Below are positions 189 through 62,121 of a DNA stretch of 64,000 nucleotides, in pieces (positions within the stretch are counted from its first letter, which is position 1; each line of letters begins with the position of its first letter). Under the pieces are notes generated by a model that saw nothing but the letters and a program-made list of their open reading frames with translations, made no database searches and was not told the DNA's origin. The stretch is from NCBI GenBank assembly GCA_002403305.1, contig DHHM01000016.1, positions 58,482 to 122,481 on the forward strand. The letters are read 5' to 3'. The DNA is from Bacteroidales bacterium UBA4772 (GTDB lineage: Bacteria; Bacteroidota; Bacteroidia; Bacteroidales; VadinHA17). The position numbers and the translations under genes are program-made.

Positions 189-196
189 TAATTTTG
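189..196 (+). promoter_or_regulatory. candidate Bacteroidota -7 promoter box TAATTTTG (TAnnTTTG)
   Basis: Exact match to the TAnnTTTG -7 consensus known for Bacteroides/Flavobacterium sigma-A promoters, about 20 nt upstream of cassette copy A1. No convincing -33 TTTG at the expected spacing. Confidence 0.35.
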
Positions 197-214: not shown

Positions 215-309
215 ATGAAACTTGCATGAGCAGTAACTCACAAAAGGAGTTTATTATTTAATTTCGTGCAAGTTCCTTTAAGCCGATGAAATAAACATGT
301 TATTATCAA
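215..309 (+). repeat. palindromic cassette copy A1 (95 nt unit)
   Basis: ATGAAACTTGCATGAGCAGTAACTCACA...TTCGTGCAAGTTCC...GCCGATGAAATAAAC. The left arm is the inverted complement of the right arm. First of a tandem pair. Confidence 0.9.
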
Positions 310-404
310 ATGAAACTTGCATGAGCAGTAACTCACACCGGAAAATGATTATATTTCTTCATGTAAGTTCCATTAGACCAATAAAATAATAATCAATTAG
401 CCTA
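310..404 (+). repeat. palindromic cassette copy A2 (95 nt unit), ends exactly at the ATG of the 405 CDS
   Basis: ATGAAACTTGCATGAGCAGTAACTCACACCGGAAAATGATTATATTTCTTCATGTAAGTTCCATTAGACCAATAAAATAATAATCAATTAGCCTA followed by ATG at 405. Confidence 0.9.
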
Positions 405-635
405 ATGAAAAGAAAGATTGCATATATCGCCTCCCTCATTCTGACGGCAAGCCTCCTGACATCATGTGAGATGCTGGGCGACAACTGCCAGATATGTCAC
501 CAGGTAACATATGACAACGGTAATCCGGTCAACTACGGTGATGAAACAGAACTTTGCGGAGACGAACTCTTCGCCGTGAAGGCCAATCCGGAAACTACTG
601 TCGGCTCTGTCACCATCAGATGGGTATGCTATTAA
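405..635 (+). CDS. small Cys-rich lipoprotein, unknown function
   Basis: 76-aa ORF. N-terminus MKRKIAYIASLILTASLLTSC has a signal peptide plus a lipobox-like LTSC. Four further Cys residues. Preceded by cassette A2. Confidence 0.6.
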   Translation: MKRKIAYIASLILTASLLTSCEMLGDNCQICHQVTYDNGNPVNYGDETELCGDELFAVKANPETTVGSVTIRWVCY

Positions 636-1219: not shown

Positions 1220-1322
1220 GGTTCAGTCCACAGTCGGCAGTCGGCAGTCGGCAGTCCACAGTCGGCAGTCGGCAGTCGGCAGTCTGACAATAGCGACTGA
1301 GGACTGAAGACTGAAGACTGGC
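1214..1322. repeat. heptanucleotide microsatellite hairpin: gactgag-gtt-(CAGTCNN)x9-acaatagc-(GACTGNN)x4
   Basis: Nine direct CAGTCGG/CAGTCCA/CAGTCTG heptads (1224-1286) are followed by four inverted GACTGAG/GACTGAA heptads (1295-1322). The structure fills the whole gap between convergent stop codons at 1217-1219 and 1322-1324. Confidence 0.9.
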
Positions 1323-4300
1323 TACTGCCTTAGCGCCATATATTTGGCATATAGTTCATTGAACCCTGCATTAAGCTCTTCGGCGAGATCAGTCTCACCG
1401 TAGTCATAGCAGGTCTGTATCAGCGGTGAAACTATCTGGAGTGTGATAACAATCTCCTGTTCCGCGTACAGGGCAACGGAGGGCACCTGATTTATCAGGT
1501 ATTCAGCACGACTGAAATAATAGTCTGCCAGGCCTCGGGCAAGCTCATTGGCCTTCTCTCTTTTCCCGGCAGCAAAACAGACAGATATTGTCTCCGGCAT
1601 ATAAAAATCATATCCCAGCTTTTCTGTCGGGAAAAGTTCCAGGCATCTGTCAATGACAGCCGAAGCCCTGACGGTGTCTCCCTCCTCAAGCAAGGCTCCG
1701 GCCAGCCTGGCATGGTTGAGCCTTGCCCGCACCACAGTGAGAGTGCGCTTGTGGTAGTAATCTATGTTAACATCCGGGTCTGCAGCACCGCCCCAGACAA
1801 ATTTGTTCATCATGTTATCGTACAGGATGTCTGTATTTATACGGCCGTAATCGAGCCTTCCCCTGTTGACTCCCTTCACCGGCACCAGTCTGTAGGCAAT
1901 GCCTTCCAGCTGGAAATATTCCTCCAGTCCCATGGCATCGTCATGCTGTCCGGCCACAAAATATATCGGTCGCTCCCAGTCGTTGTGGGCAATGATATCG
2001 AGGACCATCAGCTGGCTCTTCATCAGCCACTGGCCTTTGAGGTTGATATCTATGTATGGCACTATTCTGTCTGCATCCTCTGGCCTGACGGTTCCGTTGG
2101 CCACCACTTTGGCCGAATCAACCGGGATGCGTATGGTACGTGTTGGGATATAATAAATCTCCTCACCGTACATTTTGAGTTTTGACACTTCGCTGCCGCT
2201 GTTGATGAACCTCATCACCTCCTTTGCCGTTGCCGGCTCTTTGACGCGTTCGAATACCGCCACCTGGTTGTTTACCCCGTCATAGTACAGTTTCTTGGGC
2301 AGGCTTATGGGCAGCGGTTCGGAGCTGTATGCCTTCATCTTCATCTGGTCAATATACCAGTCGGTGTTGAGCAGCATCAGGTTGCACACCCGCACATCGG
2401 TACGCATGCCTTCCACCTCCTGGGCATACCACAGCGGGAAGGTGTCGTTGTCGCCGCCGGTAAATATCACCGCCTGCGGGGCGCATGAGTGGAGGTAGTT
2501 GAATGCCACATCCCGGGCAAGGTACCTCCCCGACCTGTCATGGTCATCCCAGTTCTCGGCAGCCATCAGTGCCGGGACGGCGGCAAAGGCAATGACGGTG
2601 GCGGCGATGGCTGCGGGCTTCTCAGTCACCGCCTTTCGCAACAGCTCATAAAGTGCCAGTACGCCCATGCCTATCCAGATGGTGAAGGCATAGAACGAAG
2701 CAGCATATGCATAATCGCGCTCGCGCGGCTGGTTGGGAGACTGGTTGAGGTATACCACAATGGCTATCCCGGTCATCACGAAGAGCAGCGACACTATCCA
2801 CCAGTTGCGCACATCACGGTTGAAGTGCCACAGGAAGCCGGCAAGGCCCAGCAGCAGCGGCAGCAGGAAATAAGTGTTGCGCGAGGGATGGTTCCTCATG
2901 TCATCAGGCATATCCTTCAGTGAGCCTGTCCTTGGTGCGTCAATAAAGTTTATTCCGGTGATCCAGTTGCCGTTCACCGGTCCCCCGAGGTGCTGTATGT
3001 CATTCTGACGGCCGCTGAAGTTCCACATGAAGTACCGGAAGTACATAACCCCGAACTGGTACCGGAACATGAACTTCAGGTTCTGTCCGAAGGTAGGCAC
3101 ACGCAGGGTAGTCGGCTCTCCCGACTGCGGGTCGGTGACAGTGACCGCCTTTCCCCCGGTGCCGGCATACTCTTCATAAACCCTCCTGTGATCAGGTGCT
3201 TCGCTCCACATCCTGGGCAGGAAAGTCACGAACCTCTCATCATACTCGCGCTCGGTGGCACGGTTGGTGATCACATATTTGCCGTCAACAGGATTATAGG
3301 TAGGCTTACCCTTCGTATAATCGGTTATGGGGGCATTGTAATAAGGACCGGTAAAGAGGGGACGCTGGCCGTACTGCTCGCGGTTGAGGTAATAAAGCAG
3401 TGCGAATGGGTTTGACGGGTTATTCTCATTCATGGGGGTATTTGCCGTTGATCTGATGACTATGGTGGCAAACGACGAATACCCTATAACGATGACGGTC
3501 ATCGCCGTCAGGATGGTGTTAAGCGCCACACGCTGACGCGTTGAGAGGTACCATGCACCGTAGATGAGCAGGGCAAGGAAGAGGAGGTTTGCCGCCAGTG
3601 AGTCTGTCAGCAGCCACATGCCCGACAGCAGAAGTGTCACCGCCGCCAGCAGGAACCCCTTTCTGCCGTCACGGTGGGTAAAGGAGTACCATACCGAGAG
3701 GATCAGTGCAGTGACAAAAAGGAGCAGGTGAATGACCATGCCGCTGTTGAAGGGCATGCCCAGGCTGTTTACAAAGAAGAGTTCAAACTTCGAGGTGACC
3801 CTGAAGATCCCCGGTATAATGCCGTACATTATCAGTACCAGCAAAATCACTGATACACCGGCAGATGCTGCCAGTCCCTTCCATGAGAACTGATACTTGC
3901 GGAAATACCAGACAAATACTATTGCCGGTATTGCCAGCAGATTTAGCAGGTGCACCCCTATTGAGAGCCCCATCATAAAGGCAATGAGTATAATCCACCT
4001 GTCAGCATGGGGCTCATCGGCCTCATCCTCCCATTTGAGAATGGCCCAGAAGACCAGTGCGGTGAAGAGTGAAGAGGTGGCATAGACCTCGCCCTCAACG
4101 GCTGAGAACCAGAATGTGTCAGAAAAGGCATAGGCCATGGCGCCCGTCAGTCCGGCACCGAGAACGGCGATGATCCTGCCGGGGGTATAATCAGACTCCT
4201 GCTTCAGGAAGATCCTGCGTGCAAGATGGGTGACGGTCCAGAAGAGAAACAGTATTGTCAGTGCACTGGCGAGTCCTGACATGGCATTGATCATCATTGC

Positions 4301-4528
4301 CACCCTGGAGACATCACCGCCGGCAAAATTGGCAAAGAACCGGCCGAGGATCATGAAGAAGGGAGCCCCGGGCGGATGCCCGACCTCAAGCTTAAAAGCA
4401 GAAGCGATGAACTCTCCGCAGTCCCACAGACTGGTTGTCGGCTCCAGGGTCATAAGGTATGTGACCGCCGCAACGGCAAAAGCCGTCCAGCCGAGTATAT
4501 TATCCCAAAGCCTGAATTTTTTTACCAT
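1322..4528 (-). CDS. DUF2723-family large polytopic membrane protein (putative glycosyltransferase-like)
   Basis: N-terminal motif LWDCGEFIASAFKLEVGHPPGAPFFMILGRFF as I recall for DUF2723. Many TM helices, then a soluble C-terminal half. The ORF extends to 4606, but MVKKFRLWDN at 4528 is the likelier start. Confidence 0.8.
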   Translation of the reverse strand: MVKKFRLWDNILGWTAFAVAAVTYLMTLEPTTSLWDCGEFIASAFKLEVGHPPGAPFFMILGRFFANFAGGDVSRVAMMINAMSGLASALTILFLFWTVTHLARRIFLKQESDYTPGRIIAVLGAGLTGAMAYAFSDTFWFSAVEGEVYATSSLFTALVFWAILKWEDEADEPHADRWIILIAFMMGLSIGVHLLNLLAIPAIVFVWYFRKYQFSWKGLAASAGVSVILLVLIMYGIIPGIFRVTSKFELFFVNSLGMPFNSGMVIHLLLFVTALILSVWYSFTHRDGRKGFLLAAVTLLLSGMWLLTDSLAANLLFLALLIYGAWYLSTRQRVALNTILTAMTVIVIGYSSFATIVIRSTANTPMNENNPSNPFALLYYLNREQYGQRPLFTGPYYNAPITDYTKGKPTYNPVDGKYVITNRATEREYDERFVTFLPRMWSEAPDHRRVYEEYAGTGGKAVTVTDPQSGEPTTLRVPTFGQNLKFMFRYQFGVMYFRYFMWNFSGRQNDIQHLGGPVNGNWITGINFIDAPRTGSLKDMPDDMRNHPSRNTYFLLPLLLGLAGFLWHFNRDVRNWWIVSLLFVMTGIAIVVYLNQSPNQPRERDYAYAASFYAFTIWIGMGVLALYELLRKAVTEKPAAIAATVIAFAAVPALMAAENWDDHDRSGRYLARDVAFNYLHSCAPQAVIFTGGDNDTFPLWYAQEVEGMRTDVRVCNLMLLNTDWYIDQMKMKAYSSEPLPISLPKKLYYDGVNNQVAVFERVKEPATAKEVMRFINSGSEVSKLKMYGEEIYYIPTRTIRIPVDSAKVVANGTVRPEDADRIVPYIDINLKGQWLMKSQLMVLDIIAHNDWERPIYFVAGQHDDAMGLEEYFQLEGIAYRLVPVKGVNRGRLDYGRINTDILYDNMMNKFVWGGAADPDVNIDYYHKRTLTVVRARLNHARLAGALLEEGDTVRASAVIDRCLELFPTEKLGYDFYMPETISVCFAAGKREKANELARGLADYYFSRAEYLINQVPSVALYAEQEIVITLQIVSPLIQTCYDYGETDLAEELNAGFNELYAKYMALRQ

Positions 4529-4635
4529 AACTCTCTCTTTTCCATTTGCCGGTAATACCGCACGAAAATAATAAGATTTTGGAGTGGCGCGGTGGATATC
4601 AGCCATTTTTGGTATTTTTGAAGAAACCGCCCTGC

Positions 4636-23112: not shown

Positions 23113-23865
23113 ATGCAAAAAATAAGAGCACTTATCATTGAAGATGAAGCACCGGCACGCGAGCTGATAAAGTTTATGCTTAAAGATCATCCTGAGATAG
23201 AGATTGCGGGAGAGTGCGGCGACGGGTTCTGCGGGGCCAGGGAGATGAAGGAGAAACATCCTGACCTTATCTTCCTCGACATACAGATGCCCAAGCTGAC
23301 AGGCTTCGAGCTGCTGGAGGTTATCGATGAAAAGCCCGAGGTGATCTTCACAACTGCCTTCGACCAGTATGCCATCAGGGCCTTCGAACTCAATGCAGTC
23401 GATTACCTGCTCAAGCCATTCTCGAAGGAGCGCTTTGATGATGCGCTGGAAAAGGCCGTCAGCCGCCTAAACAAGCAGGAGAGGGAGACGGAGAAGATAG
23501 AGAAGCTCGTGACCGCCGTCTCTGAGAGCGAGGGTCAACTGACAAGGATAGTATTCAGGAAGGGTGCCGGGATAAAGATCATCCCGCTCAACAATGTCTC
23601 CCACCTTGCTGCGGAGGATGATTACGTGATGATATATCATACCGAAGGCAAGGCGCTGAAGCCCAAGACCATGAAGTATTACGAGGAGCATCTGCCACCG
23701 TCACTGTTCCTGAGAGTGCACCGTTCGTTCATGGTCAATGTGGAGTACATAACACGACTCGAACCCTACAGCAAGGATAACTACGTGGCCATACTCAAAT
23801 CGGGAGAAAAGATCCCGGTGAGCCGTGCCGGGTATAAGATGCTGAGGGAAAAACTTAACTTTTAA
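23113..23865 (+). CDS. LytTR-family DNA-binding response regulator
   Basis: REC domain (ALIIEDE...FLDIQMP...KP) plus a C-terminal LytTR-like domain (FLRVHRSFMVNVEYI). Confidence 0.92.
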   Translation: MQKIRALIIEDEAPARELIKFMLKDHPEIEIAGECGDGFCGAREMKEKHPDLIFLDIQMPKLTGFELLEVIDEKPEVIFTTAFDQYAIRAFELNAVDYLLKPFSKERFDDALEKAVSRLNKQERETEKIEKLVTAVSESEGQLTRIVFRKGAGIKIIPLNNVSHLAAEDDYVMIYHTEGKALKPKTMKYYEEHLPPSLFLRVHRSFMVNVEYITRLEPYSKDNYVAILKSGEKIPVSRAGYKMLREKLNF

Positions 23866-25004: not shown

Positions 25005-25739
25005 CTATCTCCCGTCCACGTAGAGGAAGCTGGTACGCTTGACCAGGTATCTCACAACAGCCCAGAAGATGCCGGCTGCCACCAGCAGCGTAACGTACAG
25101 CGGCTCCATGTAAACCCTCCCTGTGACTGCAATATTGCGGACCGTATCGAGTATGGCAAAGACGATGAAGAGATTGGCCACGCTGTTGTGCTCGCGCTTG
25201 AGAACATTCCTGAAAGAGAATGGAAGTGCAGGCTTTTTGTAATGTTTCAGAGAGGGTATAACCGCTTTAACCCTGAAGGCCCAGATGTCATATGTCTCTC
25301 CGAACTTGCGGCGCAGATATTGCTCCTCGGCAAATATTATCCGTTCATAGTAGAGCCAGAAGGCCAGGATAAAAATAATGAGGCACCATACTGACCTCAG
25401 GAACATAACCGGTCCCAGCCACATCAGGAAGTTGCCGAGGTAAAGAGGGTTACGTACTATGGAATAGATGCCCGTTGTATTAAGTTCATCGGCCAGCTGG
25501 TCTATTACATTGCGCCCGGAGGTGTTGCGGGGTACATACCCCACTGTAAATGACCTGACCAGTTCACCTGCGACTGATACCAGGATGCAGATTATCTCCC
25601 AGGTGTAGTTGAAATAGATGACACTGCGGTTTGCTATGAAGAGCCAGATGATTGCCGGAACAAGAATCACCACCGGCAGCCAGCTCCTGCGTCTGAACAA
25701 CCAGTTACCTGATTTTTCAAGTTCATGGACAAGTGACAT
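25005..25739 (-). CDS. isoprenylcysteine carboxyl methyltransferase (ICMT/PEMT-like) family membrane methyltransferase
   Basis: Polytopic protein with SIVRNPLYLGNFLMWLG typical of the family. Start chosen at MSLVHELEK (25739) rather than 25880. Confidence 0.7.
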   Translation of the reverse strand: MSLVHELEKSGNWLFRRRSWLPVVILVPAIIWLFIANRSVIYFNYTWEIICILVSVAGELVRSFTVGYVPRNTSGRNVIDQLADELNTTGIYSIVRNPLYLGNFLMWLGPVMFLRSVWCLIIFILAFWLYYERIIFAEEQYLRRKFGETYDIWAFRVKAVIPSLKHYKKPALPFSFRNVLKREHNSVANLFIVFAILDTVRNIAVTGRVYMEPLYVTLLVAAGIFWAVVRYLVKRTSFLYVDGR

Positions 25740-25887
25740 ACTTACGGAGTTACTCCGTAAAAGTATGAAAAATTCATCATATAATAATTTACTCCATTTG
25801 TATGAAAGCCTGTCCCGGTTTATGGGAGAACCTCCATGTATCAGATTATTATTTACTTGTATTTGTGTGTGATAACACATGGAGGTT

Positions 25888-27117
25888 TCAGAAACTATAC
25901 CTGATCCTTAAGAAGCCAAGATTAAGCTTCGTCTCTGCGGAGGCCAGACGCATGTCAAAATGTTGCCAGAGTAATGAGAAATCGACATTCTCAGCCAGTG
26001 AAACATCCACTGAAGGGCCGGCGTACCATCCATCCATGTCAGGGTACCACATGGCTGAAAGTGATATACTGAGAAGGGGCATCGGCGCCCATGTCACCTG
26101 TCCTACGGCGCTGAATTCCGAGAAGGCAAGGTCTCTGGCCGTCAGGCCCCCCTTATAAAGCACGGTGAAACTGTCGAGTGATAGCGGGCGGTTTGAGTAC
26201 ATCAGCTGCACAATGGCGGTCAGCCTGTCAGAGAAGACCCTGTCAACGCCGGCGGTGGCAATCACGGTGCTCCCTTCATGCTCTGATCCGTCAAAAGGGG
26301 AAAAGAGTGTTGCCTCACCCCTGACGGAAAAGGGCCCGACGGCTCCTGACCATCCGGTGCCGGCGGTGAATAACTCCTCATCGGTCTCTCCGGCAAGAAA
26401 CTGGAGGTCGGTGTTCAGCAGGCTGAAGCGGAAGAGAGCTGCGGCGGTGAACCGGCCCTGGCTGTTGATCTTGACGGCAGCCTCGGCAGCTGACGATGGG
26501 CCGGTGGAATATACCAGCCTGACGGCGTCACTGCCCGGACGCTCAACATAGTCGAAATCAAAAAATGAGTAGGTGTTGAAGATGTCATTGGGGTTCCATA
26601 CCAGCGACTGGCTCCAGTTGATGCGCTGGCGGCCGGCGGTGATCTGCAGCCTGCCCAGCGTGAAGTCAGCGTATGCCCTGTCGATCATCGAATTCAGGAC
26701 ATAGGAGTTGCCGTCGGATATGTTCCATGAAAGGTCAATCCATCCGTCGTCGGTTGCCAGTCCTGACACATAACCGGGATCGAGCGCAATCATGTCGCCG
26801 GTGACAAACCTGTTCCTGATCTCTAAAGCAAAAGTGAACCTACTTCCTGCCCAGGCTTTGAAGTTTAGCCTGTTATGAAGCATGCTGCTGTTGATCCAGG
26901 TTTCTGCAGGCTTTTCGAACATGGCAGTATGGAGCCATGAGGCATACCCCCCGGCAGTGAGGCTGACCATCTTCTCTTTCTCTTCCGGAGGATCCGTGAT
27001 GACGCCGTTCATCTTCAGCGTATCACTCTTAGCAACGCCGGGGTCGATGCCGGTAAGGGCGACAGACTGCAGCATTGCGGCAAACATCATAACTGCCGGA
27101 AGGAGTGTTCGCATCAT
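25888..27117 (-). CDS. predicted outer-membrane beta-barrel protein, last gene of the ABC/LolA_like cluster
   Basis: Signal peptide MMRTLLPAVMMFAAMLQSVA. Alternating beta-strand pattern. C-terminal ...LGFLRIRYSF with a terminal aromatic residue. 4-nt overlap with the ATPase gene. Confidence 0.6.
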   Translation of the reverse strand: MMRTLLPAVMMFAAMLQSVALTGIDPGVAKSDTLKMNGVITDPPEEKEKMVSLTAGGYASWLHTAMFEKPAETWINSSMLHNRLNFKAWAGSRFTFALEIRNRFVTGDMIALDPGYVSGLATDDGWIDLSWNISDGNSYVLNSMIDRAYADFTLGRLQITAGRQRINWSQSLVWNPNDIFNTYSFFDFDYVERPGSDAVRLVYSTGPSSAAEAAVKINSQGRFTAAALFRFSLLNTDLQFLAGETDEELFTAGTGWSGAVGPFSVRGEATLFSPFDGSEHEGSTVIATAGVDRVFSDRLTAIVQLMYSNRPLSLDSFTVLYKGGLTARDLAFSEFSAVGQVTWAPMPLLSISLSAMWYPDMDGWYAGPSVDVSLAENVDFSLLWQHFDMRLASAETKLNLGFLRIRYSF

Positions 27118-27809
27118 GAAGTATGATTTGTTCTTTCGTCTGACACAACCTTCCCGTCCTCAAGGGTGATGACCCTGCGGGCCCTCTTCACAACCCGTGC
27201 ATCATGTGTCGAGAAGATAAAAGTCATCTCCTCCCCGCGGTTCAGCTTCTCCATGATGTCAAGAAGGGTCTCGGCCGATTTGGTGTCGAGGTTGGCTGTG
27301 GGCTCGTCGGCCAGGATAAACTGTGGCCGCGGCGCCAGGGCGCGGGCCACGGCAACCCTCTGCTGCTGTCCGCCTGAGAGCTGCGCAGGACGACTGCTGT
27401 GGCGGTCAGAGAGGCCTACGGCTTCCAGCAGCTCCCCGGTGCGTGCCATCCGCTTCTCCTTCGGCCATTTCTGGAGGCTCATGATAAACCCCACATTCTC
27501 TGAAGCCGTGAGAACGGGGATGAGATTGTACGACTGGAAGACGAAGCCCACATGCTCCATACGGAAATCTATCAGCTCCGAGGGCTTCAGTTCCGAGAGC
27601 CTGTGGCCCGCCACGATGATCTCCCCGGCGGTAGGCTGGTCAAGCCCCCCGATGAGGTTCAGGAGGGTGGTCTTGCCTGAGCCCGACGGACCCACTATCA
27701 CTGCAAAATCGCCCTTTTCAAAACTGAGCGTGACGCCGTTGACGGCCTTCACCTCAACTTCTGTATCATGATAGGTCTTGAAGACATCATTGATTTCAAC
27801 TACTTTCAT
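27114..27809 (-). CDS. ABC transporter ATP-binding protein (LolD/MacB-type)
   Basis: Walker A GPSGSGKTT, signature LSGGQQQRVAVARAL, Walker B ILADEPT. Confidence 0.93.
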   Translation of the reverse strand: MKVVEINDVFKTYHDTEVEVKAVNGVTLSFEKGDFAVIVGPSGSGKTTLLNLIGGLDQPTAGEIIVAGHRLSELKPSELIDFRMEHVGFVFQSYNLIPVLTASENVGFIMSLQKWPKEKRMARTGELLEAVGLSDRHSSRPAQLSGGQQQRVAVARALAPRPQFILADEPTANLDTKSAETLLDIMEKLNRGEEMTFIFSTHDARVVKRARRVITLEDGKVVSDERTNHTS

Positions 27810-27827
27810 TGTATTGCGTTTTTCTGG

Positions 27828-29255
27828 TTATTCTCCTCTTAATGCTTCAACAGGGTTTAGCTGCAACGCTTTCCTGGCGGGATAGATGGCTGCAACGATC
27901 CCGGTGATCACGATCATTACAGTCAGCATGATAAAGAAATCAGCCCCGATGGTGGGATAGAGATGGGCTGAGTATCCGAATGCCTCAAGGCCCTCCGAGT
28001 ACTTCACCAGGTTGATGCCGGTATGATTGGTAATGGCTATCACAATGGCACTTACTGCCATTCCCGCAAAACCTCCGACTATCGAAAGGAATATAGATTC
28101 AAGCATGATCATGCTGAATACACGGCGACGGTTCATGCCTATGGCTGAGAGCATGCCCAGCTCACGTGTGCGTTCCAGCACCGCCATCAGCATGGTGTTT
28201 ACTATTCCGAAGGCCAGGGCTGCCAGGATTAGCACCATGAAGATGCCATATATCTGGTTTACGTAATCGGCTATCATGGCCAGGTCAGTCTGTATCTGCT
28301 TCCAGCTCATCACCTCCAGTCCGGGGAGCGCTTCCTTTACGGATGCGCTGGCTTTGTCAGTCAGGTCATCATCCTCCAGGCGTGCAATGATGCGGTGGTA
28401 CTGCCCCTCTTCCATCCCTGTGAGGCGGAGCAGTTCATCATGCGGCACAAATACCGAAAAGGCCTCGAAAAAGTCGTTGTTCGTGCGGAAGATGCCGCTG
28501 ATACGGAAGGCAGCCCCTGTCTGTGTGCCGTTTGCATCAAGGAAGGTGAGGATGACCTTTGATCCCTCTCGGTATGACCAGGCTGCCTCCTTGATCCTCA
28601 TCCCGTACAGCTTCCCCTCCTTCTCCGTGAGCAATCCGGAACAGGCCTCCGACAGTTTCTTTTCCGCGGTGAACCTCTGGTTTTCGAGGGGTCTGAGTTT
28701 CTCAACAACGGCTGCAGGAACATCCTCAGCTTCAAGGGCGGTAAAGGATTCTTCCGTGAGGATATACCGGATTATGTAGAGCTCTTTTGCCAGCTTCTCG
28801 CCGATGAAGGCGCTGTTGAGCCTGGTGTCGGTTCCAAAGTAGCTCCCCGTTCCGGGTATGAGACGTTCCTTAAGGGTAAACATCTGCTGCTCCTTTTCAA
28901 CGTCTATGCCCGTGATCTCCACGCCCGCGCTCCCGGCGGAGGTTGAGGCTATGCCCCGTACAATTATCCGTTCGGTGATATGAGTCACTCCGGGTGTCTC
29001 TTCGAGCACCGATACAACCTTTTCAGGCTCGGCTATCACATTGGCTATGTCACTGCTGCCCCTGAATCCGGGGTTGTTTACCTGGATATGAGACAGCTCC
29101 TCGTTGACAGCGGCATCAATGCGCTGAACAATAGAGCTGTTGATGGCAGCCATGGCAAAGACGCCCGCAAAGACGCCCACGGTCACGGCAGCTATCACGG
29201 TCAGGCTCCTGGTCCTGTTCCGCCAGACATTCTTCCATGCAATGGATGTTATCAT
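27828..29255 (-). CDS. FtsX/MacB-type ABC permease (4 TM with a large periplasmic domain)
   Basis: N-terminal WKNVWRNRTRSLTVIAAV TM1, a ~270-aa extracytoplasmic insert, and three C-terminal TM helices of an FtsX domain. Confidence 0.88.
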   Translation of the reverse strand: MITSIAWKNVWRNRTRSLTVIAAVTVGVFAGVFAMAAINSSIVQRIDAAVNEELSHIQVNNPGFRGSSDIANVIAEPEKVVSVLEETPGVTHITERIIVRGIASTSAGSAGVEITGIDVEKEQQMFTLKERLIPGTGSYFGTDTRLNSAFIGEKLAKELYIIRYILTEESFTALEAEDVPAAVVEKLRPLENQRFTAEKKLSEACSGLLTEKEGKLYGMRIKEAAWSYREGSKVILTFLDANGTQTGAAFRISGIFRTNNDFFEAFSVFVPHDELLRLTGMEEGQYHRIIARLEDDDLTDKASASVKEALPGLEVMSWKQIQTDLAMIADYVNQIYGIFMVLILAALAFGIVNTMLMAVLERTRELGMLSAIGMNRRRVFSMIMLESIFLSIVGGFAGMAVSAIVIAITNHTGINLVKYSEGLEAFGYSAHLYPTIGADFFIMLTVMIVITGIVAAIYPARKALQLNPVEALRGE

Positions 29256-29267
29256 TTTAGTCTTCTG

Positions 29268-30683
29268 TTAGGCTCTGATAGCATTTATTATGTTCAATTT
29301 GAATATCCTCCGCACACTGAATGTGATGGCTATGAGCAGTATCAGCAGCACAATCGCTGCCTGCCACAGGTAGTAGGTGTCCGGGAGATGCATGGGCATC
29401 ACCGCTTCAAAGCCGTACTCCTCGTACATCTTTGCCAGCTCCCCGGTGAAGCGCAGGGGCCTTGCATAGCCATAGTAGACAATGGGCAGTGATGCTGCAA
29501 TACCTGCCAACACACCCAGCAATCCGATGAACAGCATCTCCATGCTTACTATGCCGGCCAGCTTACGCTTCTGCATCCCTATAGAGACCAGCATGCCGAA
29601 CTCCCTCCTCCGTTCAGCCATCATCATAAGTACTGTACCGGATACGCCAAAGGCTATCACCAGGTAAAGGATGCCTATCATGATTGCCCCGCTCTTGTTG
29701 TCAGCCTCCATCTGGTTCAGCAGGAGGGCATTCATCTCCTTCCAGTTGCGTATTACCAGCCCGTCATTGCAGGAGGCGGACAGCCGCTGTTGCGTTTGCA
29801 GAAGCTCCCTGTCATCTGTATCGCTTATACTTATTATGGCCGAGGTGACCATTTCGGGTGCAGCATAGAGATACTGTGCATCTGCCAGGGTGATGTAAAC
29901 AAATGCATTGTCAATCTCGGGGTTTGGCATGCTCACTATACCCTTTATCACGAAGAGTCCGGCTGCGGATACCCCGTGATAGCCCTGTCCCATCACCACC
30001 AGGGTGTCTCCAACGTCTGCGCTGAGATAACGCGACAGTCCGTATCCTATAACCGCCCGGCCGGAATCTGCCGAAGTGAGGTAACGGTTGTCGAGTGATG
30101 CATACTTCCTGAAGAGAGGCATCACTGCTGCTGAATCATCATCGCCTATGCCGAGGTCAGAGATGAGGCTCTTTTCATCGGTCCAGGCCTCACCGGAAAA
30201 TACATCGACCAGCTTAGCGGTGCGGGACGGCAGGTTTTCTCCTTTAAGAGCTTCGGTTGCATCAGGAGTAAGGCGGTATTTTATGAGACGGTTCTTTATG
30301 TTCAGCGTCTTCTGCTCATTGTCGGGATCCATGCCGATCACCATCACACCCCGGGTGCGACTCCCGGCAGCTGCCAGCGCGAACGATTCCAGCTTTGGAA
30401 TAACCCCCGTTACATTGGGGTCTGCCTCTATTATGTCAGTCAGCGACTGCTCAGGAACAAACCCGTTGTCAAGATTTGATTCATCAAGGTAGTCACTGTG
30501 CTGAAGCTGCAGGTAACCGGAGTATGATTCGATGACATCCCTGTACATCTTTTCGTATGTACCCAGCTGAAACGACCTCATCACCAGTGCAAAGAAGACT
30601 GCAAAGAATACCGAGGCTGCCGTTATGAGGGTCCTCCTTTTGTTTCGCCATAGATTTCTCCAGGCAAGCTGATAGTTCTTCAT
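29268..30683 (-). CDS. FtsX/MacB-type ABC permease, paralogue of the preceding gene
   Basis: WRNLWRNKRRTLITAASV TM1, a large periplasmic insert, and a C-terminal FtsX domain. Preceded by cassette copy B. Confidence 0.88.
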   Translation of the reverse strand: MKNYQLAWRNLWRNKRRTLITAASVFFAVFFALVMRSFQLGTYEKMYRDVIESYSGYLQLQHSDYLDESNLDNGFVPEQSLTDIIEADPNVTGVIPKLESFALAAAGSRTRGVMVIGMDPDNEQKTLNIKNRLIKYRLTPDATEALKGENLPSRTAKLVDVFSGEAWTDEKSLISDLGIGDDDSAAVMPLFRKYASLDNRYLTSADSGRAVIGYGLSRYLSADVGDTLVVMGQGYHGVSAAGLFVIKGIVSMPNPEIDNAFVYITLADAQYLYAAPEMVTSAIISISDTDDRELLQTQQRLSASCNDGLVIRNWKEMNALLLNQMEADNKSGAIMIGILYLVIAFGVSGTVLMMMAERRREFGMLVSIGMQKRKLAGIVSMEMLFIGLLGVLAGIAASLPIVYYGYARPLRFTGELAKMYEEYGFEAVMPMHLPDTYYLWQAAIVLLILLIAITFSVRRIFKLNIINAIRA

Positions 30684-30776
30684 TCGATTATCTTATTATT
30701 TCATTGGTCGAAAGAAACTTACATGTAGTAAAAACAATCATGTCCAATTGTGAGTTTCTGTCCATGTAAGTTTCAT
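30684..30776 (-). repeat. palindromic cassette copy B (93 nt), intercistronic
   Basis: Minus-strand reading: ATGAAACTTACATGGACAGAAACTCACAATTGGACATGATTGTTTTTACTACATGTAAGTTTCTTTCGACCAATGAAATAATAAGATAATCGA, then ATG at 30683. Confidence 0.88.
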
Positions 30777-30798
30777 GCCAGTGGATATTTGATGGACA

Positions 30799-31569
30799 CT
30801 ATCTGATGGTCTTCATATTCTGCTGTGAGAAGAAGCTCTCCTCAATCTTTACATTGAATTTTACCTCTGTTATATTAAGGATGGTCTTGCGGCCCGGCTC
30901 CTCGGCGGGGATCAGTTCAATGGTGGTGGGTATAAACCTTCCGTCCATTGTCCTGAGATCACTGCCCCGCTCCGTTCTGACCAGGTAGCCGTCCTCATCA
31001 TAGAGCTCGGCTTTCAGGACAATAAACTCATTTTTATCAACCCACCACAGCTGGTGACTCCAGAGAACGTCGGCATCATCCTTTGCCGTCAGCCTGATCT
31101 TGTGGCACATGCGGCCGTCGATCTCCTCCTCTCCCTCGAAAGTGTGGGTGTAGTCTTCCACCACGGAGGACTCCCTGAGGATATCATCATTGGTGTAGTC
31201 TGACCCCATCCAGCCCTGCGACATCATTGAGGGCGGCAGCTTGATAAGCCTGTTGATGGCGGGATTCCAGCTCCACATCTCCGTGCCCCGTTTGAGAAAT
31301 GTCTGTCCCTTTTCGCGCGCCGGCGCGGTGATTAGCGTGAGGGCATAGTCATCTTCCAGGGCCCACGATTTGAATTCTATTGTGCGCTGCCATGAGGAGC
31401 GCACGATGGTCATGCTCATGACGCTGTAGCCCGAGAGCTCACCGTTGAATTTCTCGTCTGTTTTTTTGATTATTTCTTTGGCGCTCAGCTGCTGCGCGGT
31501 GGCCGGCCCGCTTGCCGGCAGCAGGAGGAGCATTGCGATGCCTGTGATTATCTGACCTGTTAGTTTCAT
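30799..31569 (-). CDS. LolA_like periplasmic protein (outer membrane lipoprotein-sorting protein family)
   Basis: Signal peptide MKLTGQIITGIAMLLLLPASGPATAQ. IKLPPSMMSQGWMGSDYTNDDILRESS matches my recollection of the LolA_like family. Confidence 0.8.
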   Translation of the reverse strand: MKLTGQIITGIAMLLLLPASGPATAQQLSAKEIIKKTDEKFNGELSGYSVMSMTIVRSSWQRTIEFKSWALEDDYALTLITAPAREKGQTFLKRGTEMWSWNPAINRLIKLPPSMMSQGWMGSDYTNDDILRESSVVEDYTHTFEGEEEIDGRMCHKIRLTAKDDADVLWSHQLWWVDKNEFIVLKAELYDEDGYLVRTERGSDLRTMDGRFIPTTIELIPAEEPGRKTILNITEVKFNVKIEESFFSQQNMKTIR

Positions 31570-31665
31570 TAGATTATTTGTTTATTATTATATTGGACTA
31601 ATGGAACTTGCATGAAGTTTACAGTCATTTCCCCGGGAGGAGTTGCTGCTCATACATGGTTTCAT
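31570..31665 (-). repeat. palindromic cassette copy C (96 nt, left arm degenerate)
   Basis: Minus-strand reading: ATGAAACCATGTATGAGCAGCAACTCCTCCCGGGGAAATGACTGTAAACTTCATGCAAGTTCCATTAGTCCAATATAATAATAAACAAATAATCTA, then ATG at 31569. Its head ATG overlaps the stop of the upstream ORF (ATGA). Confidence 0.8.
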
Positions 31666-32057
31666 CTGTATCTTTTTATCAGTGCGTCTGTTACCTTTTC
31701 ATAATATTCACCCTGATACTGTTCTTCAGAGAATATGGAAGTGATGGCAAACCCCTTGATCGCATTTATAAACATGAGCAGATCGGTCATCGGGTTATAG
31801 TCCGGACCGGCGTTCTCTCCCTTCTTCCGGAAGTATTCCACCAGGAGGCTCATCATGCTTTCGGTGTATTCCCTGAAAGGTCTTCCTGATATTGATAAGG
31901 ACCCTGACTCCTCCCCGAATAGTTTCTCATAGACTCCGGGCTGTATCATTATTCTGAAGAGCAGTTTCCGGAACTGCCTCTTCTCATGAAGCACTTTAAA
32001 TACTTTCCGGATTTGCAGAAAGTGTTGAAAATAAAATATATGTAGTAATATTAACAT
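31662..32057 (-). pseudogene. ORF of unknown function, possibly the C-terminal remnant of a TetR-like regulator (no HTH present)
   Basis: 131-aa helical ORF in the position where such clusters often carry a regulator. The frame is closed by in-frame stops at 32070-32072 and 32088-32090, so no DNA-binding N-terminus can be encoded. The family assignment is a guess. Confidence 0.3.
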
Positions 32058-39437: not shown

Positions 39438-39923
39438 ATGACCGTAAAAGAGTACAATAACGCCGTCAGGGAGTTCGGTGACCATGTTTACCGGTTCATC
39501 TTCCGCAGTATCAAGGACAGCCACAGGGCTGACGATATCGTACAGGACAGCTACGAAAAGCTGTGGCGGAACGTTACTGAAATAGAGTACTGCGCCGTGA
39601 AATCATGGCTCTTTTCAACGGCATACAACAGGATGATTGATGTTATCAGGAAAGACTCCAGGCTGGTAGGCGTGGAGTATTACGATGACAGTTCACTATA
39701 TGCGGAGGAGAACGGCAGCGACCTTAACGAGGTGCTGCACAGGGCCCTGGAGACCCTTCCGCCGGCCCAGCGATCGGTAATTCTCCTGCGTGATTACGAA
39801 GGGTACAGCTATAAGGAGATAGCTGACATCACCGCACTCTCTGAGGCACAAGTCAAGACCTACATCTTCAGGGGACGTGTGGCTCTCAGGAACTATCTGG
39901 TAAAGACATCGGTATGGCAATGA
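39438..39923 (+). CDS. ECF (sigma-70 family group 4) RNA polymerase sigma factor
   Basis: 161 aa. Region 2 (DIVQDSYEKLW...W Lfstaynrmid) and region 4 (LPPAQRSVILLRDYEGYSYKEIADITALSEAQVKTYIFRGR). Confidence 0.9.
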   Translation: MTVKEYNNAVREFGDHVYRFIFRSIKDSHRADDIVQDSYEKLWRNVTEIEYCAVKSWLFSTAYNRMIDVIRKDSRLVGVEYYDDSSLYAEENGSDLNEVLHRALETLPPAQRSVILLRDYEGYSYKEIADITALSEAQVKTYIFRGRVALRNYLVKTSVWQ

Positions 39924-41071
39924 CAGAAAATACAGACTTCCCACACCTTACACCCCGGGACGACAGGCTGCAGGGCGAAGGGAAGCTGTTCCGCCGGCCG
40001 GAGGAGCTTACTGATGAGCAGTTTGATCTCCTCGCTGCCGCGTGGGCCGATGATGCTCTCGGCGGCGACAGTCTCGCAGAGACAGAGGCGGCGCTGTCCT
40101 CCAGTCCTGAAAGAAGGATGCGCGCTGAAAGCTTCCGGCAGATCAGGCTCTCTCCTCTGATTGACAGGTGGGAGGGCAGGAACCGAATACTGAAAGCTGA
40201 TCCGGGTACCTACGCCATCAGGCGCATACTGATTGTCACACTGACTGTCGCCGCGGCACTGGGAGCCCTGGTAATCCTGGGCCCGTTAAAAACGGAACCC
40301 GACAACAAATCAGCGGGTCCGGCTGTTGCTGAGGCACAAAAAATTGGTGAGGCCATAACAATAGCTGAAGCACAGACAATGGGTGAGGCCCTCATCTCCG
40401 AAGCATCACCGGTGATCGTGGCCCTGCCGGCAGAGAGTGTGACTCCTGCGACACAAAATATTAATCAAACTGCCGGTGCGGCTAACCCATCCATTGACAA
40501 AACAAGCAGTACCCGGTTGGCCGGTGTCATCTCCGGATCTGCTGCTGACATAACGAGTAAGCCGCGGCCAGTCGGGGTGATCCCGGAATCACTTAAGCCG
40601 GAAAGAATAGTGCCGCAACAGAATGATATTACTGCCTCAGTTACCAACTCATTCATCCACGCTAATAGTGAGCCGCGAACCACCGCGGAAATTGCTGAAT
40701 ACCGTGATCTGGCAGAGTCTATTGCCTTGATGCATGATTTTTCGGGTGCAGTGCCCCTGCTGGCTGCCGGACCGGAAGCATCCCGCCTGGCTCCGGTGGA
40801 GCTTAAGGATATAACCCCTCTTCCTGCTCTGGAGAGAGAGGAAAACTGGCTGGTGAGAGGTCTCTCACTGCTGGCGGAGGCCATAACAAAAGAACCGAAA
40901 AGTGTTGACGGATACTTTATTGCCGATGCCTGCATCAGAGGAGTAAACAGAGTGCTGGGCTGGGAAATGGAGCTCGAACAGGAGAAAAATAATGAAGGGG
41001 AGCAACTTGCAACGAATTTCAGCTCTTCACTGCTAACCTTCTCTGCCCCGGCGAAAAAAACTCATCCCTGA
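39914..41071 (+). CDS. putative anti-sigma factor (single-pass membrane protein)
   Basis: Overlaps the sigma gene by 10 nt. N-terminal cytoplasmic segment, one TM helix (ILIVTLTVAAALGALVILG), and a low-complexity periplasmic part with an AEAQxxGEA repeat. Confidence 0.55.
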   Translation: MAMTENTDFPHLTPRDDRLQGEGKLFRRPEELTDEQFDLLAAAWADDALGGDSLAETEAALSSSPERRMRAESFRQIRLSPLIDRWEGRNRILKADPGTYAIRRILIVTLTVAAALGALVILGPLKTEPDNKSAGPAVAEAQKIGEAITIAEAQTMGEALISEASPVIVALPAESVTPATQNINQTAGAANPSIDKTSSTRLAGVISGSAADITSKPRPVGVIPESLKPERIVPQQNDITASVTNSFIHANSEPRTTAEIAEYRDLAESIALMHDFSGAVPLLAAGPEASRLAPVELKDITPLPALEREENWLVRGLSLLAEAITKEPKSVDGYFIADACIRGVNRVLGWEMELEQEKNNEGEQLATNFSSSLLTFSAPAKKTHP

Positions 41072-41113
41072 GTGTAACTTTCCGGGTGCATTGATCGTCC
41101 CACCAATAAACAA

Positions 41114-41183
41114 CAGAAACTTGCATGAGCAGAAACTCACAGCAGTAAATGACTACTACATTCATGCAGGTTCCATTCGACCA
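41114..41183 (+). repeat. palindromic cassette copy D1 (70 nt short form, lacks A/T tail)
   Basis: cAGAAACTTGCATGAGCAGAAACTCACAGCAGTAAATGACTACTACATTCATGCAGGTTCCATTCGACCA. A tail-like remnant CCACCAATAAACAACA lies just upstream. Confidence 0.85.
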
Positions 41184-41277
41184 GTGAAACTTGCATGAGC
41201 AGGAACTCGCAACAGGTTTTGATTGTCAAATTCATGTAAGTTCCATTCGACCAATAAAATAATAATTATATAACCGA
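41184..41277 (+). repeat. palindromic cassette copy D2 (94 nt)
   Basis: GTGAAACTTGCATGAGCAGGAACTCGCAACAGGTTTTGATTGTCAAATTCATGTAAGTTCCATTCGACCAATAAAATAATAATTATATAACCGA, then ATGAAATAA. A duplicated 25-nt tail follows, then the gene ATG at 41303. Confidence 0.9.
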
Positions 41278-41302
41278 ATGAAATAATAATTAAATAAACG
41301 CC

Positions 41303-42484: not shown

Positions 42485-42652
42485 TTTGGCGCAACAGCGC
42501 GGTCAGCAGAGTGTTGTACATTTGGCACAACAGCACATTCAGAAGAGCGGGCCGCAGGGCGTTGTATATTTGGAACAACAGCGCATTCAGAAGAGCGGGC
42601 CGCAGGGCGTTGAAGATTTGACGCAGCGGCACGTGTCGCAGAGCGTTGAAAC
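42485..42652. repeat. tandem array of four 36/48-bp units upstream of pepE
   Basis: Units begin with TTTGG/TTTGA at 42485 (36 bp), 42521 (48 bp), 42569 (48 bp) and 42617 (36 bp). The 48-bp units carry a 12-nt insert CGGGCCGCAGGG. Confidence 0.9.
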
Positions 42653-58680: not shown

Positions 58681-58774
58681 TCGGTTATTTAATTATTATT
58701 TTATTGGTCAAATGGAACTTACATGAATTTGACAATCAATACCTGTTGCGAGTTCCTGCTCATGCAAGTTTCAT
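58681..58774 (-). repeat. palindromic cassette copy E2 (94 nt)
   Basis: Minus-strand reading: ATGAAACTTGCATGAGCAGGAACTCGCAACAGGTATTGATTGTCAAATTCATGTAAGTTCCATTTGACCAATAAAATAATAATTAAATAACCGA, then ATG at 58680..58678. Near-identical to D2. Confidence 0.9.
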
Positions 58775-58845
58775 TGGTCGAATGGAACTTACATGGAGTA
58801 AAACAATCATAACCTTTTGCGAGTTGCTGCTCATGTAAGTTTCAT
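58775..58845 (-). repeat. palindromic cassette copy E1 (71 nt short form)
   Basis: Minus-strand reading: ATGAAACTTACATGAGCAGCAACTCGCAAAAGGTTATGATTGTTTTACTCCATGTAAGTTCCATTCGACCA. Confidence 0.88.
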
Positions 58846-61933: not shown

Positions 61934-62026
61934 ATGAACTTGCAAAAGCGGGGACTCTCAATAGGAGATGACGTTAAAACTTCATGCAAGTTCAATCCGG
62001 CCAGTAAAATAAATATTTATACACGA
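61934..62026 (+). repeat. palindromic cassette copy F1 (93 nt, degenerate)
   Basis: ATGAACTTGCAAAAGCGGGGACTCTCAATAGGAGATGACGTTAAAACTTCATGCAAGTTCAATCCGGCCAGTAAAATAAATATTTATACACGA. Confidence 0.8.
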
Positions 62027-62121
62027 ATGAAACTTACAAGAGCAGTAACTTACAATAGGTAATGATTATTTCTCTTCATGTAAGTTCCATTAGACCAATA
62101 AAATAACAATCAAGTAATCTA
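62027..62121 (+). repeat. palindromic cassette copy F2 (95 nt), ends at the ATG of the S41 protease gene
   Basis: ATGAAACTTACAAGAGCAGTAACTTACAATAGGTAATGATTATTTCTCTTCATGTAAGTTCCATTAGACCAATAAAATAACAATCAAGTAATCTA, then ATG at 62122. Confidence 0.9.

Follow-up and report, generated by a model that had tools for sequence, protein, structure and literature searches.

A ~95-nt hairpin repeat of Bacteroidales that probably inserts at gene start codons and replaces them

INTRODUCTION

Mycobacterial interspersed repetitive units (MIRUs) are described as mobile elements that insert at start codons and affect the gene only minimally (PMC12548453, which cites Supply et al. 1997). In the summary given there, MIRUs appear as short (40-100 nt), oriented repeats standing directly before genes, often in tandem and without a transposase of their own. 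We have analysed a repeat that resembles them in these respects, found in a 64,000-nt stretch of DNA (hereafter, the window) from Bacteroidales bacterium UBA4772 (GenBank assembly GCA_002403305.1, contig DHHM01000016.1, positions 58,482 to 122,481 of the forward strand). Our analysis indicates that the repeat is probably a non-autonomous, oriented insertion element of ~95 nt that replaces the start codons it hits, that is, a gene-sparing parasite and not a classical regulatory RNA family.

The MIRU is the closest functional analogue. In both cases an oriented insertion at the gene start would spare expression; for the present repeat, this fits the pairs of filled and empty start codons and the 54 of 85 copies whose own ATG opens the ORF. 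As portrayed in the same source, the MIRU differs in not being a palindromic hairpin and in holding a small open reading frame (ORF) whose translation is coupled to that of the gene (-4 overlap). The present repeat has no coupled ORF; it consists of a hairpin and an A/U-rich leader, with its own ATGAAA and a 4-codon upstream mini-ORF. The two also belong to different phyla and share no sequence similarity. Start-codon insertion by MIRUs therefore means that this kind of element is not unprecedented, though the present family is undescribed: a search of the published literature, for the sequence and for start-codon-targeting repeats in Bacteroidales, found no description of it.

In structure, the unit is closest to the repetitive extragenic palindromes (REPs) with the related REPIN and BIME types. 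Like the present repeat, these are dispersed non-autonomous palindromes without terminal inverted repeats, presumably read as folded single strands and long-lived in a lineage; the repeat, however, lacks the GTAG sequence and no REP-associated tyrosine transposase (RAYT) is linked to it. A Bacteroidetes subclass of RAYTs, 2.6, is itself associated with atypical hairpins without GTAG (PMC6006769).

Other small repeats, namely the Correia elements of Neisseria, ERIC/IRU, RUP/BOX and further repeats resembling MITEs (miniature inverted-repeat transposable elements), are comparable in being small and co-transcribed, in forming RNA hairpins and in being able to alter expression. Rickettsia palindromic elements (RPEs) are comparable in that they persist by gene-sparing insertion. 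Correia and ERIC elements differ by their terminal inverted repeats and their TA or other duplications, and RPEs by inserting in frame inside genes. To our knowledge, start-codon replacement is known for none of Correia, ERIC/IRU, RUP/BOX or RPE.

RESULTS

Copies of the repeat in the window

An earlier note on this DNA had listed ten copies of the unit with their coordinates and orientations. All ten were confirmed, both by reading the sequence with an alignment (A1) and with a covariance model of the repeat core run unfiltered (R1), which scored them on their sense strand at 62.8-98 bits. R1 gave in addition a weak match at 25.8 kb, and its opposite-strand echoes in the window were weak (15-29 bits). 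The 17-mer of the left arm, GAAACTTGCATGAGCAG, allowing up to three mismatches, had nine matches in the window against 0.24 expected from 100 shuffles, and Tandem Repeats Finder returned periods of 95, 70 and 71 for the adjacent pairs. Pairwise identity among the ten copies was 68-87%, with the exception of one pair at two separate loci, 41184-41277(+) and 58681-58774(-), which reached 96%. The G+C content of the units was 0.27-0.43, against ~0.51 for the window. The description of a palindromic non-coding family, present on both strands and not CRISPR-like, was likewise upheld.

The match at 25.8 kb corresponds to a divergent eleventh copy (25785-25895, minus strand), also scored with a full-length covariance model (R2; Table 1). 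It was the sole additional match in the window to the pattern GAAACNNNNATG-N25-55-CATNNNNGTTY, for which 0.01 was expected, and its stem is preserved through two double (compensatory) changes relative to the family consensus. This copy overlaps the annotated start of a 291-aa PEMT/ICMT-like ORF (25005-25880), and the true start of that gene is therefore uncertain.

The 3' end of the unit as start codon of the gene that follows

Each array of the window adjoins an ATG on its own strand, at 405, 30683, 31569, 41303, 62122 and 58680. The LolA-like gene starts at 31569 with the ATGAAA that ends unit 31570-31665, the FtsX/MacB permease gene that follows copy 30684-30776 starts at 30683 with the codons ATGAAG, and the S41 (Ctp) protease gene (Pfam Peptidase_S41) starts at 62122, directly after array 6. 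The gene of an outer-membrane protein (OMP) beta-barrel (Pfam OMP_b-brl_2) starts at 41303, 19 nt past the proximal unit of array 4. The ATGAAA of the array 5 proximal copy (58680-58675) opens only a 26-codon ORF, which makes this one of the non-start sites. Loci outside the window, some of them orthologous to its arrays, are designated here by L numbers. The arrangement at the lipoprotein-like ORF 405-635 is identical in L002, the unit of the 30684-30776 locus occupies the identical site in L076, and L009, the ortholog of the array 5 locus, has a single copy only.

The gene-proximal copies numbered 85, from the window plus 78 loci of at least 12 Bacteroidales/Rikenellaceae metagenome-assembled genomes (MAGs) and of metagenomes. 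In 54 of them, an ORF of 60 aa or more begins with the ATG of the copy itself, and in a further 19 a co-oriented ORF starts no more than 120 nt away (73/85 together). Nine have no ORF within 120 nt, and the remaining three have another copy after them or are at a contig end. In most copies the ORF start falls 16 nt past the core-model match. The bias in position and orientation relative to genes, which the earlier note had set as a test, is thus very strong. The repeats do lie between genes, as had been reported, but at a particular kind of site: the end of a unit coincides with the start codon of the gene after it, and empty sites show insertion at ATGAAA.

The downstream genes are mutually unrelated. 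In the window they encode a lipoprotein, an OMP, Ctp, FtsX and a LolA-like protein, and those at other loci, as assigned from N-terminal sequences, include SDR, LytTR, FTHFS and ROK proteins. Such a lack of functional relation argues that the family does not mark a regulon. An envelope-stress regulon, in keeping with the window genes, which all encode envelope proteins, was considered and rejected, as other loci carry cytoplasmic enzymes.

On the upstream side, the flanks share no homology between loci. Promoter-like boxes were found only in host DNA 5' of some arrays, the other arrays being intercistronic and preceded by the 3' end of a gene. In seven arrays a -7 box (TAnnTTTG) lies 19-25 nt 5' of the first copy, at -24/-25 or -19/-20. 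A promoter of the extracytoplasmic function (ECF) sigma or Bacteroidetes type inside the unit was rejected: the arms hold GAAACTT/GGAACTT, but the unit has no TAnnTTTG box. The A fraction of the 20 nt preceding first copies was 0.41, compared with 0.40 in native leaders and 0.24 in the whole window, and the 5' triplet of first copies is still ATG in 77% of cases. The A-rich upstream 20 nt fits a 5' ATGAAA that may be the original start codon. The window holds 65 ATGAAA sites, most of them intragenic, and 7 of its 52 genes start with this hexamer.

Two further arrangements were seen. Copies L019 384-489(+) and L012 399-504(-) are orthologous, have a decayed 3' end (GTTAAT instead of ATGAAA) and lie downstream of a convergent glycoside-hydrolase-like gene, so that a non-start site is kept in two MAGs. 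In the window, a Lol-like operon (27114-32057, minus strand) comprises a 131-aa ORF, the LolA-like gene, two FtsX/MacB permease genes and an ABC ATPase gene, with repeat units at two intercistronic junctions; ATGAAA likewise opens the ATPase gene, where no unit is present.

Filled and empty orthologous sites

Evidence of insertion came from four orthologous pairs whose flanks could be aligned on both sides (a slash marks a junction). In pair (i), a comparison that rests on raw sequences, L021 is empty (...cataaattcatgagactATGAAATACAC) and L014 is filled (...cataaattcaccggaccATGAAAC-unit-cgggATGAAATACAT), with ATGAAA on both flanks and proteins that are 94% identical. In pair (ii), the LytTR regulator gene at 23113 of the window is empty, and its 92% identical ortholog in L004 (MAG WOFB09) is filled, the unit sitting between ...tttcaatATG and AAAAAGATAAGAGC. 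In pair (iii), a single old copy, ending CGAATGAAA/AGAGGC, stands before ctp in L009 (alignment A5), and the window has an extra 95-nt unit (62027-62121) at that ATGAAA. In pair (iv), at the OMP locus, L016 carries only copy 1, whose tail is intact, ...CCCGTG/AAATAATAATTAAGTAAACGCC (A6); the window and L008 carry a 94-nt unit at the GTGAAA of this resident tail, and the remainder of the old tail is found at 41284-41302.

The flanking repeats of pair (iv) differ, with GTGAAA on the left and ATGAAA on the right. Therefore, either TGAAA at most was duplicated, or the unit brings its own ATGAAA and inserts 3' of TGAAA. The only junction compatible with all four pairs lies within or at the edge of TGAAA/C (bottom strand, G/TTTCA). 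As read from these alignments, the pairs show a unit that would insert immediately 3' of (A/G)TGAAA, which is usually the start codon of a gene with its Lys codon, or else the ATGAAA of an existing copy.

A classical MITE, mobilised by a DDE transposase with a 5-6-bp target-site duplication (TGAAA/ATGAAA), is extremely improbable. The repeat is short, non-coding and dispersed, and has direct repeats on its flanks, but its termini are not inverted repeats, since the right arm of the palindrome is internal (25-30 nt from the 3' end). Besides the unequal flanks of pair (iv), the presumed duplication has an invariant sequence, (A/G)TGAAA, and no insertion sequence with matching ends was found among the 78 loci.

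In 10 of 12 arrays the proximal copy outscored the distal one. Proximal copies would be the best preserved because each new unit would land on the functional start, with older ones pushed upstream to decay. The 95-nt period would stem from hits on the terminal ATGAAA, and the ~70-nt spacing from hits on the AATGAAA found inside about half of the tails. Recent movement is further suggested by the 96% identical pair at separate loci, by upstream flanks that share no homology but are as A-rich as native leaders, and by a G+C content below that of the window.

Two mutually exclusive pairings predicted for the unit

In the full unit of ~95 nt, a hairpin of ~70 nt is followed by an A/U-rich tail of 23 nt, and CNA-ATGAAA forms the 3' end. 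It opens with AATGAAAC, and its stem P1 (AACUUGCAUGAG / CUCAUGYAAGUU) has a single A.C mismatch and no bulged bases. The loop of ~33 nt holds the conserved motifs GCAGnAACUCAC, GG and AUGAUU, together with a small inner hairpin, P1b (UGAG/CUCA in general, and UGAGC/GCUCA, GAGCU/AGCUC or CCCGC/GCGGG in a second subfamily). The stem is followed by CCAUUNGACC and then by the A/U-rich tail, and most copies have a gap of 23 nt between the hairpin foot and the start region. The layout is strongly asymmetric between the two halves. The 3' A/T-rich tail has no complement at the 5' end, similarity weakens beyond the ~17-nt arms, and a partial covariation of GCAG(N)AAC with GAUU(N)U was seen by eye (alignment A9).

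The absence of a conserved reading frame, also asserted earlier, held for the body of the unit, where loop indels break any common frame; a conserved peptide within the unit was rejected on this ground. It did not hold at the two ends. A 4-codon mini-ORF (ATG AAA CTT RCA TGA, MKL(A/T)-stop) is conserved at the 5' end, ending ~80 nt 5' of the downstream gene's AUG, and the terminal ATG AAA is used by the downstream gene. An intrinsic terminator was rejected as well, the stem being A/U-rich and followed by CCAUUNGACCAAUAAAAUAA, with no U-run.

The hairpin's 3' foot, UUCCAUUNGA, has two complements: the 5' AAUGAAA, with which it would extend P1, and the 3' end UCNAAUGAAA, with which it would form a helix P2. 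The two pairings are mutually exclusive, and the extended-P1 and P2 conformers have roughly equal mean predicted energies (-18.1 and -18.5 kcal/mol). In a MAFFT alignment of 41 full-length copies, 93.9% of cells were paired for P1 and 91.4% for P2, against 20-40% in slid controls. In the R2 alignment of 87 distinct copies (A10), the values were 96.4% for P1, 91.8% for P1b and 93.0% for P2, with 16-33% in slid controls. The consensus and inverted-repeat arms quoted in the earlier note were thus correct (P1 paired in 94-96% of cells over the two sets). In the 87-copy alignment, two-sided changes occurred at 8 pairs, against 2.6 in shuffles, and none of 500 shuffles reached 8. The bulk of the covariation came from one pair in P1 (AU38/GC37/GU7) and one in P2 (CG43/AU23), and the P2 pair covaries within both subfamilies (A...CUAAUG vs C...CGAAUG).

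These features could also belong to a vertically inherited, non-mobile cis-regulatory RNA of the 5' untranslated region (5'-UTR), such as a riboswitch, a thermometer or a protein-binding switch, that masks or releases the start codon via P2 and extended P1. In favour of such an RNA are a structure conserved with covariation, conserved loop motifs, a start codon in the 3' strand of P2 at a fixed AUG distance, two iso-energetic conformers and copies kept at orthologous loci in several species. We consider it very unlikely, because orthologous sites can be empty and copy number varies among relatives, downstream genes have no functional relation, upstream tandem copies decay, near-identical copies occupy separate loci, the composition is foreign to the genome, some copies have no downstream gene, and Rfam has no match. 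Copies of an insertion element may still have a secondary regulatory effect.

Some copies depart from the common anatomy. In L025 5980-6086(-), with the foot CCAUGCGG and the start region CGUGUGAAA, several P2 pairs are changed jointly and the gene starts with GUG. Extra sequence of ~110 nt is found within the loop of the unit at L018 2300-2475, and a common 20-nt loop insert, CCGAAGCTCGAYGCAGTC, in L047 7244-7369 and L054 718-843. The loop therefore tolerates insertions.

Distribution of the family

The 78 loci were collected by exact-pattern scans with the left-end pattern on genomes and the right-end pattern on metagenomes; 37 are from ~12 Bacteroidales/Rikenellaceae MAGs and 41 are metagenome contigs. 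Window and loci together gave 90 sense-strand matches of 45-124 bits, with antisense echoes of 15-30 bits. All 78 loci hold complete short units, the only extended loops being those of L018, L047 and L054. A large genome-wide family, as the earlier note had proposed, found no confirmation: related MAGs have 1-11 exact 23-mer matches each, and the ~530 kb of DNA flanking the other loci contain ~1 extra copy per 100 kb. The window, with six loci in 64 kb, is therefore unusually dense.

No copies were present in the viral contigs, plasmids and phages that were searched. The window genes are ordinary chromosomal ones (ATP synthase operon, fatty-acid synthesis, two-component systems, ECF sigma factor and Lol-like transporter, by Pfam), and the GC skew gave no information on replication direction. 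The family had been left without a named Rfam counterpart, and an Rfam scan of the whole window at gathering thresholds indeed gave no match; in E-value mode, region 100-520 gave only chance-level snoRNA and miRNA matches, far below gathering scores. One unit, L013, lies on a 1.8-kb contig binned as "Clostridia bacterium" (JAFGUQ010000102.1). Given the shortness of this contig and the resemblance of the adjoining hybrid histidine kinase to those of Bacteroidales, mis-binning is likelier than a Firmicutes copy.

Coordinates and neighbouring features

The positions of the repeat units and of associated sites are given in Table 1.

Table 1. Repeat units, associated sites and predicted pairings in the window, with model scores and supporting alignments
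Feature	Position	Strand	Evidence or remark
Host -7 promoter-box match TAATTTTG (Bacteroidetes TAnnTTTG), outside the repeat	189..196	+	24 nt 5' of array 1
Array 1, distal (older) copy	215..309	+	ATGAAA 215-220, mini-ORF ATGAAACTTGCATGA; R1 88.2, R2 76.2 bits
Array 1, gene-proximal copy	310..404	+	R1 97.5, R2 116.8 bits
Array 1, proximal copy, P1 and its 5' extension	P1 314-325 with 358-369; extension 309-312 with 371-374	+	Fold, pair counts
Array 1, proximal copy, alternative helix P2 and A/U-rich tail	P2 371-376 with 402-407; tail 377-401	+	
76-aa lipoprotein-like ORF (MKRKIAYIASLILTASLLTSC...)	405..635	+	ATGAAA 405-410 also forms the 3' end of the unit
Empty target site, start (ATGCAA) of LytTR response-regulator gene	23113..23118	+	L004 ortholog filled; A8; Pfam
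Divergent 11th copy, GAAACCTCCATG...CATGGAGGTTC	25785-25895	-	R1 21.2 bits, E=0.016; R2 28 bits, E=0.01
Single copy between LolA-like gene and FtsX/MacB permease gene	30684..30776	-	R1 84.5 bits
Single copy directly 5' of LolA-like gene	31570..31665	-	R1 68.7 bits
Array 4, distal copy, tail broken at internal GTGAAA by next copy	41114..41183	+	R1 62.8 bits
Array 4, proximal copy, ending in ATGAAA 41278-41283	41184..41283	+	R1 93.1, R2 116.7 bits
Array 5, proximal copy	58681..58774	-	R1 95.2 bits
Array 5, distal copy without tail (70-nt spacing)	58775..58845	-	R1 73.9 bits
Host -7-box-like motif TAACTTTG, overlapping the rnpA stop codon	61912..61919	+	19 nt 5' of array 6; conserved in L009
Array 6, distal, degenerate copy, orthologous to the L009 single copy	61934..62026	+	R1 74.5 bits; A5
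Array 6, proximal copy	62027..62121	+	R1 98 bits; A5

The window has other tandem repeats. A perfect heptamer array, CAGTCGG x 7.7 (or a 28-nt period), at 1224-1284 separates a response-regulator ORF (815-1219) from a convergent TMEM260-like gene (1322-4606). A 48-nt tandem repeat (2.5 copies, 87% matches) at 42499-42620 is placed in the spacer between the end of the OMP gene (42403) and the start of an S51 peptidase gene (42690). At 39438-42403(+), an ECF sigma factor gene (39438-39923) is followed by an overlapping 385-aa ORF, by array 4 and by the OMP gene. The 385-aa ORF has no Pfam match and possibly encodes an anti-sigma factor. In-gene tandem repeats with periods of 18 and 21 nt (40326-40389 and 41465-41513), located in this ORF and in the OMP beta-barrel gene, probably code for low-complexity peptide repeats.

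DISCUSSION

The arrangement of the units suggests how an insertion element could spare the gene whose start it interrupts. After insertion, the old ATGAAA would become the 5' foot of the hairpin, heading the 4-codon mini-ORF, and the element's own ATGAAA, in frame behind an A/U-rich leader, would become the new start, so that the protein would keep its N-terminus MK... Copies would persist because insertion is nearly neutral, the MK... N-terminus and an A/U-rich leader of the Bacteroidota type being restored. Repeated hits on one start codon would build head-to-tail arrays in which the youngest copy is gene-adjacent and the older ones decay upstream. In the mRNA, extended P1 may mask the obsolete AUG and P2 the new one; as P2 is weak and closes a 23-nt loop, at most a modulating effect on translation would be expected.

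In an excised, circularised unit, P1 and P2 would form one continuous stem of ~20 bp spanning the junction, which would read ...CNAATGAAA/CTTGCATG... A stem of this kind would explain why the last nucleotides of the unit covary with the hairpin foot. The absence of terminal inverted repeats, the specific target and the strand-specific structure together suggest an enzyme for a folded single strand. Mobilisation would take place in trans, by a recombinase that recognises this strand; candidates are an HUH/Y1 enzyme of the RAYT or IS200 type and a tyrosine recombinase acting as the integron integrase does on attC.

The second of these candidates corresponds to an attC-like folded-hairpin site (as in integron cassettes or CTX-phi/Xer), in which the unit would be a minimal "cassette" without an ORF that recombines at G/TTTCAT. 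Such sites are imperfect palindromes of 60-100 nt that act as a folded strand, have AAC...GTT at the crossover and have a stem completed only across the circular-form junction. Read on its bottom strand, the present unit consists of TTTCAT, a 23-nt payload and a hairpin with the outer boxes ATGGAAC ... G/TTTCAT, with AAC/GTT triplets at the junction. TGAAA/C (bottom strand, G/TTTCA) is also the sole junction that fits the four filled/empty pairs, a stem continuous across the circular junction would account for the covariation of P2, and in the divergent copy at 25.8 kb the GAAAC/GTTC boxes are retained, with compensatory changes in the inner stem. We nonetheless regard this reading as quite unlikely. 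The boxes ATGGAAC/GTTTCAT miss RYYYAAC/GTTRRRY at 2 of 4 variable positions each, extrahelical bases are absent, the window encodes no integrase, no gene cassettes are found between units, and the inserted segment is just 94-95 nt. The units also precede genes, whereas attC sites follow them.

Several observations weigh against a start-codon-replacing insertion element. About 11% of copies are away from gene starts, and part of the preference for start codons may come from counter-selection of insertions inside genes and not from targeting. Each filled/empty pair can also be read as a precise loss between ATGAAA repeats, the direction of change being our inference, and many copies are kept at orthologous sites across species, as would also be seen with a useful cis-element. 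The covariation is carried mainly by two pairs and partly tracks the subfamilies, its events are non-independent, and A10 is fitted to the model. The excess of G.U (52) over A.C (32) on the sense strand is only modest and fits RNA and top-strand single-stranded DNA alike. As to the mobilising enzyme, no transposase (in agreement with the earlier note), integrase, reverse transcriptase or HUH gene is encoded among the ~50 genes of the window (Pfam), and no longer, "autonomous" element sharing either unit end was found in the 78 loci. In the 594 kb formed by the window and the 78 loci, we found no RAYT-like motif (regular expression) and no similarity to the TnpA of IS200/IS608 (tblastn), both of which are weak tests.

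The same searches bear on a REP/REPIN-type element moved by a RAYT (TnpA_REP, HUH Y1), possibly of the Bacteroidetes-specific subclass 2.6, which we hold to be possible, though rather doubtful. The hairpin with its two ~17-nt inverted arms, the lack of terminal inverted repeats, the dispersed copies and the absence of a linked transposase are as in REPs, and insertion 3' of a short specific sequence that is repeated at the 3' end of the element recalls the cleavage sites of IS200/IS605 (IS608, ISDra2). RAYTs of subclass 2.6 are found with atypical, weaker hairpins that are copied elsewhere in the genome, but those listed for Pedobacter are ~33 nt long and unrelated in sequence (PMC6006769). 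The foot of the present hairpin is AATGAAAC, and GTAG/GTGG is missing from it and from the consensus; this leaves room for an atypical REP, because subclass 2.6 REPs also lack GTAG. The ~95-nt unit with its asymmetric A/U tail, fused to a start codon in strict co-orientation and with a defined site, (A/G)TGAAA, is unlike REPs in other ways: both orientations occur within 64 kb and track gene direction, and fixation at start codons is not known for REPs. The lack of a RAYT-like motif in 594 kb counts for less, since RAYT genes are normally single-copy.

With the IS200/IS605 family and its miniature derivatives (PATEs), the repeat appears to share insertion 3' of a short specific sequence (here TGAAA), the absence of inverted-repeat termini and, in part, hairpins near the ends. 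In IS608, an internal guide base-pairs with the cleavage sites, and the foot UUCCAUUNGA would be analogous in pairing with both ends of the element. The differences are that the present unit has one large hairpin plus the small P1b, with none near the right end, in place of separate left- and right-end hairpins, that its guide is ~10 nt long and located 3' of the hairpin, that no TnpA/TnpB was found, and that orientation is mixed within the window.

The family could also be mobile DNA of a class not recognised before, guided to start codons through nucleic-acid base pairing. The ~10-nt guide UUCCAUUNGA at the hairpin foot would find its complement in the ATGAAA of the target as well as in the end of the element itself, and integration would fall to a single-strand recombinase, either of the host or unlinked. 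A bistable 5'-UTR, with the old or the new AUG masked, would arise as a by-product and would possibly be co-opted by the host as a portable translational switch. We regard this more specific proposal as unlikely.

In practical terms, gene-start prediction in this lineage will be led astray by the units, as will the annotation of promoters and UTRs and the assembly of MAGs. Should the repeat be the start-codon-replacing insertion element that we favour, it would offer a clean non-mycobacterial example of a parasite that survives by replacing the start codon it destroys, and its tandem arrays would be a record of insertion order. The hairpin-plus-guide anatomy would point to a structure-specific recombinase with a 5-6-nt target. 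The units would also rewrite the 5' leaders of housekeeping genes and, as initiation in this phylum does not rely on Shine-Dalgarno sequences, each insertion would be a natural experiment on what Bacteroidota require of a leader.

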